Source: Candidatus Woesearchaeota archaeon | GTDB lineage: Archaea; Nanobdellota; Nanobdellia; CAZCWL01; CAZQAZ01 | Direction: 5' to 3' | Length of the DNA: 41,816 nucleotides | NCBI GenBank assembly: GCA_964591855.1 | Contig: CAZQAZ010000004.1 | Location: 1 to 41,816 of the forward strand | In this document: positions 7,077-10,050 of the stretch, in pieces | Numbering within the stretch: the stretch's first letter is position 1 | Layout of the letters: each line of letters opens with the position of its first letter | Notes under the pieces: generated by a model | The model's input: only the letters and a program-made list of their open reading frames with translations | Told to the model about the DNA's origin: nothing | The model's database searches: none | Made by a program: the position numbers and the translations under genes

Positions 7077-7763
7077 TTAGATGTTTAAGATTTCGACTTT
7101 AGAGACATACTTCTTCATGACTTGGGCTATGCGCTCAAGATCTTGCCGCCTGAGTGGTTGGACTTTACTTGCGGTTGGGTCAAGCGTATATTTGTTTGAG
7201 AATTGCTGGAGGTGATAAAGCTTAGCTCCCTTGATTTGTTTTCCAATCTCTTCATAGTCTTCAAGAGTAAGCTTTGGCCAAGCCGTAGTTCTAAAGACGT
7301 AGTCTACTTTTGAAGACATTATGATCTTTATGCTTTCTTTAAGCAGGTCTGTGTCTACGTCCACACCCACCACATCTTTATACTTGCTAAATGGTGCTTT
7401 AACATCCATAGCAATAAAGTCCAACAAACCCTTCGATAAGAGTTCCTTTATCATCGAAGGGTTTGAACCGTTTGTGTCAAGCTTAACAAGGTAGCCCATT
7501 CTTTTTATTTTAGATATAAACTTGGGAAGGTCTTTTTGGAGAGTGGGCTCTCCACCTGTTATCACCACACCATCTAACAAACCCATTCTGTCTTTGAGGA
7601 AGTTTAGTATTTCTTCTTCAGGAATGTGTGGCCTTTTATTAAAAACAAGTTCATAGTTATGACAGTACACACATCTAAAATTACACCAAGGTGTGAAGAT
7701 TATGCATGCTACCTTGCCAGGATAATCTAAAAGAGTAAGCTTCTGCAGCCCAGCTATGATCAT
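7077..7763 (-). CDS. nrdG: Anaerobic ribonucleoside-triphosphate reductase activating protein (radical SAM)
   Basis: 228 aa with the CNFRCVYCHN CxxxCxxC cluster and the GGEPTLQ motif. It lies 4 nt downstream of the glycyl-radical mini-ORF. Confidence 0.9.
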   Translation of the reverse strand: MIIAGLQKLTLLDYPGKVACIIFTPWCNFRCVYCHNYELVFNKRPHIPEEEILNFLKDRMGLLDGVVITGGEPTLQKDLPKFISKIKRMGYLVKLDTNGSNPSMIKELLSKGLLDFIAMDVKAPFSKYKDVVGVDVDTDLLKESIKIIMSSKVDYVFRTTAWPKLTLEDYEEIGKQIKGAKLYHLQQFSNKYTLDPTASKVQPLRRQDLERIAQVMKKYVSKVEILNI

Positions 7764-7767
7764 GCTT

Positions 7768-7932
7768 TCACTCAGCAGACTCCACAGCTGTTATTGCTTT
7801 GTCGAAGGTCTTTCTGTCTTCGAACTCTGCTTGCTTTCCATCGTTCCACTGAGATACAGGTCTTATGTAACCCACAACTCTTGAGTACACTTCACATCTT
7901 GTTCTCTTTGCTTCGACGTTCTCTTTCTTCAT
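7768..7932 (-). CDS. Stand-alone glycyl-radical C-terminal segment of class III RNR (NrdD C-terminus)
   Basis: 54 aa from the ATG, MKKENVEAKRTRCEVYSRVVGYIRPVSQWNDGKQAEFEDRKTF..., carrying the NrdD glycyl-radical motif (RVxGY...WNxGKxxE). GAGGGGTGA precedes the ATG, which lies 4 nt after the nrdD stop in a different frame. Confidence 0.75.
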   Translation of the reverse strand: MKKENVEAKRTRCEVYSRVVGYIRPVSQWNDGKQAEFEDRKTFDKAITAVESAE

Positions 7933-7936
7933 AGTA

Positions 7937-9955
7937 TCACCCCTCAGCAACTTTTATTCCCAGTTCCTCATCACATATTGGACAAAACTCATGCTCTCCA
8001 GGAATATAACCATGTATTGGACATATGCTAAATGTGGGCGAAAGAGTGTAATAAGGAAGTCTATACCTAAAAGCTATAGTTCTTACAAGTCTTTTAACAG
8101 CCTCTATAGATGGCGCCTTCTCTCCTAAGAATATATGTAATACAGTTCCTCCCGTATACTTTATTTGTAGAAGGTCTTGTTTATCAAGAATCTCAAATAA
8201 ATCATCGGAGTAATCTACTGGGAATTGAGACGAATTGGTGTAATAAGGTGCCGCTCCTAGTTCTCTGTAGTTTTTCTCATTTGCAACTATTATGTCTGGA
8301 TATTTCTCTTTATCTAATCTTGCAAGCCTATACGATGTACCTTCGGCAGGTGTAGCTTCAAGATTATATATGTTCCCTGTTTCTTCCTGGTAGTCGCTTA
8401 TCCTCTCTCTCATGTAGTCCAAAACTTTAACAGCAAACTTAAGTCCTTCATTGGTTGTTATAGGTTCTCCTATCAAATTCAAGCTTGCTTCATTCAATCC
8501 AATAAGACCTATTGTAGAGAAGTGATTCTTCCAGTAGCTACCAAACCCTTGCTTTATGTCCTTGAGGTAGTATTTGGAATATGGGTATAATCCTTGCTCC
8601 GTAAACTTCTCAAGGACTTTCCTCTTAATCTCAAGAGACTCCTTTGCTAGATCCATTAATCTTGATAATCTCTCAAAGAATTCATTCTCATCTTTCGATA
8701 CATAACCAAGTCTTGGTAGGTTTATGGTTACCACGCCTATTGATCCTGTAAGTGGATTTGCACCAAATAATCCTCCTCCCCTCTTTCTAAGCTCTCTATT
8801 GTCTAATCTCAATCTACAACACATACTTCTTGCATCTTCTGGCTTCATATCCGAATTAACAAAGTTCGAGAAGTATGGAATACCATATTTAGCTGTCATC
8901 TCCCAAACTGGGTCTAAGACTTCATTGTCCCAGTCGAAGTCTTTGGTTATATTATAAGTTGGTATAGGGAATGTAAAAGGTCTTCCCTTAGCATCACCTT
9001 CAAGCATGACTTCGGCAAATGCCCTGTTGATCATGTCCATCTCTTTCTGAAACTCACCATAAGTTTTATCCATTATCTTGCCGCCAATAATGACAGGCTC
9101 TTTCTTCATGAACTCTGGAACAGATAAGTCCATTGTTATATTAGTGAATGGTGTTTGGAACCCAACTCTTGTTGGAACATTAACATTAAACAAGAATTCC
9201 TGCATGGCTTGCTTTACTTCCTTATAGGTTAGATTATCATATCTTATGAAGGGTGCAAGAAGTGTGTCGAAGTTAGAGAAAGCTTGAGCTCCAGCAGCTT
9301 CTCCTTGTAGTGTATAGAAGAAGTTAACCACTTGTCCAAGGGCTGTTCTGAAGTGTTTTGCTGGTTTAGTTTCTATCTTACCAGGTACACCACCAAAACC
9401 AAGTATAAGGAGTTGCTTTAAGTCCCACCCAACACAATAAGGACCCAAAGTTCCTAAATCATGAATGTGAAAGTCTCCTGATTTATGCTTAGATTGTATC
9501 TCCGGAGGGTATATCTTACCTAACCAATAATTCTCCACTAACTTTGATGCAATGTGGTTATTTAAACCTTGTAGTGAGTAAGACATGTTTGAGTTCTCTT
9601 TTACTCTCCAATCAGTTTTATTGATGTAGTTGTCTATAATCTCGAACGAAGAGAATAAAGAAGCAAGATTTCTTAGATCACTATGTTGCTTCCTGTATAA
9701 GATGTAAGCCTTTGCAGTCCTAGCATGACCATTCTCTATTAAAACCTTTTCAACAATATCTTGTATGTCTTCAACTGTTGGAATTCTGTCTTTAAACCTC
9801 TCCTCCGCTATGGCTACAACCTTGTCCGCCAGAGAACTTGCAAGAGTTCTATCCGTTCCTCCAACGGCCCTTGCAGCCTTCCATATAGCATTTGCTATCT
9901 TAGCCTTATCAAAACGAACGAGTCTACCATCCCTTTTTCTTATTAATTTTATCAT
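7937..9955 (-). CDS. nrdD: Anaerobic ribonucleoside-triphosphate reductase large chain lacking the glycyl-radical tail
   Basis: N-terminal ATP-cone (IRKRDGRLVRFDKAKI...AKAYILYR), the active-site SMCCRLRLD, and a C-terminal Zn site CPIH...CPIC. The track start at 9970 is TTG, so the ATG at 9955 is used. The ORF stops before the RVxGY motif. Confidence 0.9.
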   Translation of the reverse strand: MIKLIRKRDGRLVRFDKAKIANAIWKAARAVGGTDRTLASSLADKVVAIAEERFKDRIPTVEDIQDIVEKVLIENGHARTAKAYILYRKQHSDLRNLASLFSSFEIIDNYINKTDWRVKENSNMSYSLQGLNNHIASKLVENYWLGKIYPPEIQSKHKSGDFHIHDLGTLGPYCVGWDLKQLLILGFGGVPGKIETKPAKHFRTALGQVVNFFYTLQGEAAGAQAFSNFDTLLAPFIRYDNLTYKEVKQAMQEFLFNVNVPTRVGFQTPFTNITMDLSVPEFMKKEPVIIGGKIMDKTYGEFQKEMDMINRAFAEVMLEGDAKGRPFTFPIPTYNITKDFDWDNEVLDPVWEMTAKYGIPYFSNFVNSDMKPEDARSMCCRLRLDNRELRKRGGGLFGANPLTGSIGVVTINLPRLGYVSKDENEFFERLSRLMDLAKESLEIKRKVLEKFTEQGLYPYSKYYLKDIKQGFGSYWKNHFSTIGLIGLNEASLNLIGEPITTNEGLKFAVKVLDYMRERISDYQEETGNIYNLEATPAEGTSYRLARLDKEKYPDIIVANEKNYRELGAAPYYTNSSQFPVDYSDDLFEILDKQDLLQIKYTGGTVLHIFLGEKAPSIEAVKRLVRTIAFRYRLPYYTLSPTFSICPIHGYIPGEHEFCPICDEELGIKVAEG

Positions 9956-9965
9956 TTTAGAACAC

Positions 9966-10008
9966 CACAATATGTTGTGCTGTATCTAAGTAATAGCTCA
10001 ACATATTG
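9966..10008. promoter_or_regulatory. Two quasi-palindromic boxes (perfect 10-bp inverted repeat, centres 31 bp apart) between the nrdD TATA and the ATG
   Basis: CAATATGTTG at 9968-9977 and CAACATATTG at 9999-10008. The extended box CACAATATGTTGTG spans 9966-9979. TATA-like boxes lie at 10026-10044 and the ATG at 9955. Confidence 0.45.
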
Positions 10009-10050
10009 GTATTAAGCAAAGGAAGTATATAAAGGATTTTATAATCCGAA

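Follow-up and report, generated by a model that had tools for sequence, protein, structure and literature searches.

A class III ribonucleotide reductase apparently made of two chains, with the glycyl-radical loop encoded by a small gene between nrdD and nrdG

To our knowledge, every glycyl radical enzyme (GRE) studied so far has its radical glycine on the catalytic chain. In the 41.8-kb stretch of DNA analysed here (contig CAZQAZ010000004.1 of a Candidatus Woesearchaeota archaeon, positions 1 to 41,816; below, the window), the nrdD gene, encoding a class III ribonucleotide reductase (RNR), stops short of the glycine loop, and a loop of this type is encoded by a separate small open reading frame (ORF) immediately downstream. 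Is this a damaged gene, a frameshifted one, or an enzyme made of two chains, and if the latter, why are the chains separate? Judging from comparisons of sequences, we estimate at about 0.85 the probability that the locus encodes an obligate two-chain class III RNR together with its activase NrdG, in one tightly packed operon. All three genes are on the minus strand of the window, and their arrangement, including the start signal between the first two, is as follows.

7937..9955, minus strand: nrdD large chain, 672 aa (ATG at 9955, TGA at 7939-7937), with the ATP-cone, alpha/beta barrel, CCRL finger loop and CPIH...CPIC
7945-7936, minus strand: Shine-Dalgarno (SD)-like GAGGGGTGAT, overlapping the last codons and the stop of the large chain and ending 3 nt before the peptide ATG
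7768..7932, minus strand: gene of the 54-aa glycyl-radical loop peptide MKKENVEAKRTRCEVYSRVVGYIRPVSQWNDGKQAEFEDRKTFDKAITAVESAE (ATG at 7932-7930, TGA at 7770-7768)
7077..7763, minus strand: nrdG, activase of the radical S-adenosylmethionine (SAM) type, 228 aa (PF04055; TIGR02495 NrdG2, E 1e-64)

In a Pfam scan the large chain matches the ATP-cone (PF03477, E 6.5e-25) and positions 1-530 of the 562 positions of the NRDD profile (PF13597, E 8e-189); it also scores 1075 bits against the NrdD equivalog NF006126 (cutoff 548, profile positions 2-651 of 684). The finger loop SMCCRLRL is present, with C382 and C383 invariant in alignment A3, and the end of the chain is formed by a putative zinc site, CPIH-x10-CPIC, whose Cys/His pattern is common to the fused relatives. 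The glycyl-radical loop (RVxGY) is absent from this chain, which stops at NRDD position 530 of 562. The peptide, in turn, matches PF13597 at positions 532-562, including RVVGY (E 9e-11), as well as the extreme C-termini of the NrdD models from NCBIfam. Hence the NRDD profile is partitioned between the two ORFs, with the break exactly between consecutive profile positions, which is far beyond chance. The predicted radical glycine of the YSRVVGY segment is Gly21 (codon 7872-7870). With respect to the large chain the peptide gene occupies the +1 frame; a spacer of 4 nt (TACT) separates it from the TGA of that chain, and nrdG starts at 7763, 4 nt past the stop of the peptide gene; the 4-nt spacing of the peptide gene suggests translational coupling.

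A first-pass annotation of this DNA, made from the sequence alone, had described a 672-aa NrdD with the ATP-cone, CCRL and CPIH...CPIC, ending in TGA before the radical loop, and a 54-aa ORF in the +1 frame with RVxGY and its own SD-like motif, ending 4 nt before nrdG, and all these features are indeed present, on the minus strand. The interval 7768-7950 given there for the small gene corresponds to a TTG-extended version of the ORF, and the ATG at 7932 is the likelier start. The small gene had also been considered an autonomous glycyl-radical domain; this is true for the loop and the C-terminal tail, both of which are detached, but not for the zinc site, which stays on the large chain and is usually counted within the glycyl radical domain (PMC11226230).

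The region immediately upstream of the small gene looks like a start signal in its own right. GAGGGGTGAT resembles the archaeal SD motif GGAGGTGAT, which we take to reflect the archaeal anti-SD sequence, and stands at the SD distance from the peptide ATG. Comparable motifs (GGAGGTGAT, GGAGG, GAGGTGA) are found ahead of the small gene in most of the archaeal relatives and in several of the bacterial ones, and no SD is seen before the small gene in AT-rich loci of the Candidate Phyla Radiation (CPR).

The peptide belongs to a large set of similarly short proteins. A search with the 54-aa sequence yields 350 relatives, of which the best 120 are all 39-93 aa long; their common core is R-[TQ]-x-C-E-[VI]-Y-S-R-V-V-G-Y-[IL]-R-P-V-x-Q-W-N-x-G-K-Q-A-E-F, and both tails are variable. 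Residues C13, E14, S17, R18, V20, G21, P25, W29, K33, E36 and R40 are invariant across 54 homologues. The profile built from 54 peptides and searched against 1.84 billion representatives of 50%-identity clusters produces 4968 matches at E<=1e-3, 2449 of them at E<=1e-10. The best 150 cluster representatives are all 48-149 aa long, and 145 of these are new; as 135 of the 145 start with Met and only four have an upstream CxxC, they are not C-terminal fragments of long genes. In one cluster representative, P0241 (66 aa), the glycine-loop segment is present in a tandem duplicate (...CEVYSRVVGYLSPVSHWNEGKKEEW-EVYSRVVGYLSPVSHWNEGKKEEW...). The alignments do not support a special role for Cys13 of the peptide: almost every fused relative has this Cys as well, and in some fused and some viral forms its place is taken by Thr or Ala.

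The first-pass annotation had proposed a search of related genomes for the same split, and it is found in many archaeal and bacterial lineages. Our scan covered one genome per species and returned at least 600 matching stretches; of the best 80, approximately 24 have the split architecture. The archaeal split loci come from Thermoplasmatales, Micrarchaeota, Woesearchaeota, Nanobdellota and unclassified archaea, and the bacterial ones, from Patescibacteria (Dojkabacteria, Saccharibacteria, Veblenbacteria and others), Hippea, and metagenome-assembled genomes (MAGs) labelled Gammaproteobacteria. The gene order nrdD large chain, small gene, nrdG, often with nrdR ahead, is observed in several lineages. 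In related genomes the distance from the stop of the large chain to the start of the small gene varies between -43 and +146 nt, and each of the three relative frames occurs. The spacer is 14 nt in the closest relative, GCA_964554465.1, compared to 20 nt in Dojkabacteria and 37-39 nt in Aenigmarchaeota. In Synergistota (Aminobacterium, whose two-gene system includes WP_024821654.1, and a 2.9-Mb contig) the order is nrdD large chain, nrdG, small gene, and the stop-to-start distance is 722-729 nt.

The break point in the protein is constant in the split loci examined, the large chain having ...CxxC-D-x-E-x-G before it, and the peptide, K-x-T-x-C-E-V-Y after it. Every split large chain examined ends soon past the zinc site, where C-x-x-C-D-x-E-x-G gives way to a tail that varies. 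At the break, this tail comprises 3-30 residues, and as few as four residues are found ahead of the conserved Cys of the peptide.

Some large chains are unusual in other respects. In a Saccharibacteria locus (L039, 792-2947) the large chain itself is encoded in two overlapping ORFs, beside the conserved split. Large chains of 985-1116 aa, the normal length being approximately 670-710 aa, are found in L008 (1006-3963), L021, L033, L045, L051, L063 and L065, and in the viral loci L106, L115 and L159. These probably are intein insertions, occurring in split and fused forms alike.

Selection acting on the small gene was assessed using 36 core codons in pairs of split loci. Synonymous sites in the peptide core are mostly saturated, while 67-89% of residues are kept, and the ratio of nonsynonymous to synonymous substitution rates (dN/dS) is 0.04-0.08 where dS is measurable. 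Such strong purifying selection argues that the small ORFs are expressed and constrained.

How do the split forms relate to the single-chain ones? Among the 120 best relatives of the large chain the loop is present in 113 and absent in seven, the latter including the window's own protein and P0206 (annotated as partial). In single-chain proteins the linker between the zinc CxxC and SRVVGY is 7 residues long in Bathyarchaeia, 9 residues in a few archaeal loci, and 12 residues in Bacteroidales and Syntrophomonadaceae. Moreover, there are long-linker fused forms (L026, L027, P0124), with linkers of 20-25 residues, that share C-D-x-E-x-G with the split large chains. If the two chains of the window were joined, approximately 32 residues would separate the last zinc Cys from the glycine, compared to 12 in the short-linker single-chain relatives, in agreement with the estimate of about 30 given in the first pass, where the value of about 12 was that of Escherichia coli NrdD.

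In the neighbour-joining tree of large chains, which has no support values, split and fused forms are interleaved, which speaks against a single origin of the split. The closest view of a transition is provided by the sister pair P0123 (split) and P0124 (fused, found on five contigs), approximately 90% identical at the DNA level around the junction: a 53-nt block carrying TAG, GGAGGTGAT and ATG is present in the split form only. Given this stop-SD-ATG block and the interleaving of the forms, the break can be described as a defined junction cassette. It is located in a linker that tolerates insertions and connects the zinc ribbon to the strand leading into the glycine loop. Evolution appears to have converted split forms into long-linker fused ones and vice versa; both states seem to be viable, with transitions between them having occurred more than once.

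As a glycine loop is missing from the adjoining large chain, we predict that the peptide is an obligate subunit here, and not a duplicate spare part like GrcA. The 54-aa peptide would be translated independently from its own start and inserted non-covalently into the barrel, like the last approximately 45 residues of single-chain NrdD; it corresponds to the loop and the tail of the C-terminal domain of the latter. Gly21 would then be positioned opposite the CCRL cysteine loop, NrdG would abstract the Gly21 hydrogen from the peptide, whether free or in the complex, and the radical would then move from Gly21 to the CCRL cysteine for nucleotide reduction. Docking in trans is inferred from the homology with single-chain enzymes. 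In NrdD from Prevotella copri the C-terminal domain comprises the zinc site, the buried glycine loop and a surface tail, and high mobility is seen throughout this domain (PMC11226230), so that a detachable loop is plausible.

Several observations weigh against a two-chain enzyme of this kind. The junction GGG-TGA-T would in principle permit a +1 slip in this organism. The core of the peptide hardly differs between split and fused forms, and no signature of a special adaptation to binding in trans is seen in it when these forms are compared. In the AlphaFold2 model of the fused sister P0124, built with a shallow alignment of 20 sequences, the mean predicted local distance difference test score (pLDDT) is 74, and the linker is not marked as disordered, with pLDDT of approximately 76 at residues 671-680. 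The isolated peptide is not confidently folded by AlphaFold2 (mean pLDDT 62.6, predicted template modelling score 0.31). The P0124 model matches class III RNR structures and is taken here as confirming the class III fold only. The finger loop with the catalytic CC pair (residues 380-406) has pLDDT <50 in this model; for the finger loop of another class III RNR, two alternative AlphaFold2 conformations have been reported (PMC9669993).

The loop is also encoded by stand-alone genes. Those from Desulfobacterota (111-118 aa, orphan genes) and from an archaeal virus are located as follows.

L052, 5803-6144: orphan loop gene, Desulfobacterota
L098, 10001-10345 (CP070697.1): orphan loop gene, Desulfobacterota
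L100, 10001-10354: orphan loop gene, Desulfobacterota
L101, 4110-4463: orphan loop gene, Desulfobacterota
L182, 4680-5114 (KP703175.1, 25525-25959): Zn-ribbon-type 144-aa protein of the archaeal virus ANMV-1

The Desulfobacterota orphans are monocistronic and encode a CxxC...CxxC ribbon followed by an NrdD-type glycine loop (QKCEVYSRVVGYLRP...); the best 120 relatives of this type match at near-full coverage. Neither nrdD nor nrdG was found within 6-10 kb of them in three different genomic contexts, and the neighbours differ between genomes. Upstream of these genes we observe 16-mers resembling NrdR boxes, 31 bp apart, around TTGAC: two clear boxes in L052 and L100/L101, and one clear plus a possible weak second box in L098.

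Among viral contigs from IMG/VR, short stand-alone loop genes are present in 70 of the 80 best loci (L102-L181), and both nrdD and nrdG are lacking within 4 kb of nearly all of these. In one viral sub-family the N-terminus is extended by a conserved stretch, M-T-E-L-x-N-G-D-L-x-L-D-N-G-x-x-I-P. On three contigs the loop gene is present twice; for example, L123 (3944-4141) and L153 are both located on the 35.9-kb contig IMGVR_UViG_3300025600_000014, in the neighbourhood of an O-like replication initiator, a NinG/Rap-type endonuclease, HNH endonucleases, a peptidase and an exonuclease. Some of the IMG/VR contigs may be misclassified cellular DNA.

The search of GenBank phages gives a single match, ANMV-1, whose protein, annotated as 'anaerobic ribonucleoside triphosphate reductase', consists of a Zn-ribbon and the glycine loop, without the catalytic barrel; the authors annotated this 144-aa protein as nrdD and read it as an oxygen-sensitive RNR (PMC4372165). 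A dedicated family for the peptide was not found in PHROGs, where weak matches are to the C-terminus of phrog_487 (NrdD) and to phrog_4132, a family of unknown function, with the peptide (7768-7932) aligned to positions 113-161 of 179 (E 1.6e-5); phrog_4132 may be another viral family ending in the glycine loop. The orphan and viral copies suggest that a loop of this type is able to act in trans, on a barrel whose gene is located elsewhere.

Why, then, would the loop be kept on a separate chain? Cleavage by O2 at the glycyl radical would cost only a cheap peptide, and the 672-aa chain could be equipped with a fresh copy; that the split makes replacement easier after damage by oxygen is plausible, and the orphan genes and the copies encoded by viruses support this indirectly. 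That the function of the split is to provide a replaceable or exchangeable part is, however, a tentative idea, which we consider rather unlikely to be correct. We are equally doubtful about its stronger version, a consumable loop, in which NrdG arms the free peptide, peptides swap on the large chain so that enzyme damaged by oxygen is repaired with no need for resynthesis, and orphan or viral copies re-arm or take over the host barrel.

The main rival to the idea of a replaceable part is a functionally neutral split, that is, a stop-SD-start block that arose in a tolerant linker and persists as two chains assemble equally well as the fused enzyme, with no gain in oxygen repair or in regulation. 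It concerns only the reason for the split and leaves the two-chain anatomy as it is. Its chances seem to us to be somewhat below even. The interleaving of split and fused forms in the tree of large chains, the separation of the sisters P0123 and P0124 by a single indel of 53 nt, and the near-identity of the peptide core in both forms are all in favour of neutrality; moreover, many carriers are DPANN and CPR organisms with reduced genomes, in which gene fission and drift are common. On the other hand, the split is kept through deep divergence in many phyla, the peptide gene in Synergistota has been relocated behind nrdG, and free-standing NrdD-type radical proteins exist away from nrdD in Desulfobacterota and viral contigs, which suggests that action in trans is itself used.

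Coming back to the two-chain anatomy, we find a programmed +1 frameshift at GGG-UGA-U, producing mainly single-chain NrdD (...KVAEG-DTMKKEN...), very improbable. The site loosely resembles the frameshift site of RF2: the P-site tRNA-Gly on GGG could re-pair with GGU at the slow UGA, and a purine-rich SD-like stretch is nearby. However, this stretch is positioned atop the would-be shift codon, and not about 3 nt upstream of it, while its spacing is correct for initiation at the ATG. Furthermore, the relatives have no common slippery site, as their junctions occur in all three frames, with overlaps, with spacers of up to 146 nt, or with nrdG in between. Reassignment of TGA was also considered and rejected, as in-frame readthrough never reaches the glycine motif, and TGA also serves as the stop of the peptide gene.

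Still less probable is a sequencing or assembly indel, or a recently broken, decaying nrdD pseudogene. Breaks of this kind do exist. In a Saccharicrinis MAG (L061, 3977-6147) extra frame breaks interrupt a gene that close relatives have in single-chain form, with a linker of 12 residues. It serves as a negative example, having neither its own tail nor an SD at the frame break, which is probably an assembly or sequencing artefact. In the window, in contrast, the stop, SD and ATG are all in place, and both ORFs are intact and conserved, with the low dN/dS of the peptide given above. The junction is identical base for base in two independent metagenome assemblies from ENA (ERZ27248101 and ERZ27248308), in both of which a single synonymous change, located in the large ORF, is the difference from the window, and the architecture recurs in many phyla. 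The first-pass opinion that this is an evolved split rather than a fresh indel is thus upheld by the two assemblies, hundreds of short homologues, the variable junctions, the gene order in Synergistota, and purifying selection.

The least probable alternative is rejoining of the chains after translation or transcription, by a split intein or trans-splicing: probable inteins are frequent in large chains of the relatives (985-1116 aa in L008, L021, L033, L051, L063 and L065), but tails of 3-30 residues on the large chain and down to four on the peptide fall far short of the length of an intein half, the two ORFs of the window are only 4 nt apart, and the Pfam scan of both ORFs gave only the ATP-cone and NRDD.

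With the two-chain enzyme as the preferred reading, we consider the surroundings of the operon. The neighbouring genes in the window include those for a threonyl-tRNA synthetase with the archaea-specific editing domain and a Cbf5-type pseudouridine synthase, which identify the window as archaeal. A candidate regulatory site is located upstream of nrdD.

9965..10011, minus strand: NrdR-box-like operator candidate upstream of nrdD, two boxes, a proximal and a much weaker distal one

The proximal palindrome GCACAACATATTGTGG (9980-9965) has three mismatches to the NrdR-box consensus, reportedly that of Rodionov and Gelfand from 2005, and the weaker box TACCAATATGTTGAGC (10011-9996) starts 31 nt upstream of the start of the proximal one. 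GCACAACATATTGTGG is the only match with at most three mismatches in the window, yet 0.86 are expected by chance, so that the site is suggestive only through its position. No nrdR gene adjoins nrdD in the window; in relatives, nrdR is the gene directly preceding nrdD.

A widespread class III RNR with the loop on a separate peptide of approximately 50 residues would be the first of its kind. It would offer a new approach to the old question of how the activase gains access to a glycine buried in the barrel, as the loop could be supplied, labelled, mutated and exchanged as a peptide. Experimental access is possible through Aminobacterium, a genus with cultured species, which carries the two-gene system. 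For anaerobes, many of them DPANN and CPR organisms, the split suggests a possible cheap repair path of an essential enzyme, and viruses might manipulate the host supply of deoxynucleoside triphosphates with a tiny gene. If the loop were indeed consumable, the peptide would be the class III RNR counterpart of GrcA and T4 Y06I, and the substrate of the activase would be the free loop. There are also consequences for annotation, as truncated nrdD genes are named as complete, and the small genes are called hypothetical or taken for a whole RNR (as in ANMV-1, PMC4372165).

Our literature search for a split or truncated NrdD, with most subscription journals outside its coverage, found none, yielding only class II and phage intron cases; the split is real and conserved, and seems not to have been described before. 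RNR genes in pieces are known from phages, e.g., nrdD of T4 with a group I intron, nrdA-a/nrdA-b of Aeh1 split by mobE, and nrdD of phiAS4, and these still work (PMC3653736). However, the phage breaks stem from introns, homing endonucleases or recent damage, occur at other positions, and are lineage-specific, and none produces a conserved radical-loop gene.

A closer parallel is class II NrdJa/NrdJb of Pseudomonas aeruginosa and other Proteobacteria, where the RNR catalytic subunit is likewise encoded by two consecutive genes of an operon. This split is found in the same form across taxa, the enzyme is not active unless the C-terminal piece is present, and NrdJ has been called the only split RNR found in a non-viral organism (PMC4520616). 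The difference is that NrdJ depends on adenosylcobalamin, and its 229-aa NrdJb is involved in thiol-disulfide exchange and carries no radical, whereas the window encodes a class III enzyme with the glycine on the small piece.

With single-chain NrdD proteins (phage T4, Thermotoga maritima, Prevotella copri, Streptococcus thermophilus) the predicted enzyme has in common the family, the fold, the order of zinc site, loop and tail, and the nrdG partner. In their structures the loop is covalently attached, and sequence identity is only approximately 20%. By homology, the enzyme of the window would thus be a class III RNR, and it differs from the others in that its predicted catalytic unit is not a single chain.

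Finally, GrcA/YfiD of Escherichia coli and Y06I of T4 are, like the peptide, small free-standing proteins with the GRE loop motif RVxG. GrcA is homologous to the C-terminus of pyruvate formate-lyase (PFL; PF01228), while the peptide matches only NrdD models in Pfam and NCBIfam scans. A 2026 review names formate lyases as the sole GRE class for which spare-part proteins are known (PMC13450708). GrcA duplicates a loop that is kept by full-length PFL and is used after oxygen cleavage, whereas the large chain of the window has no loop. Therefore the likeness to GrcA drawn in the first pass applies to the free-standing radical loop, but not to the role of a duplicate, the adjoining large chain being loop-less. 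What the peptide would share with GrcA/YfiD is the presumed activation by the cognate radical-SAM activase and the occupation of the barrel of a chain without a working loop.

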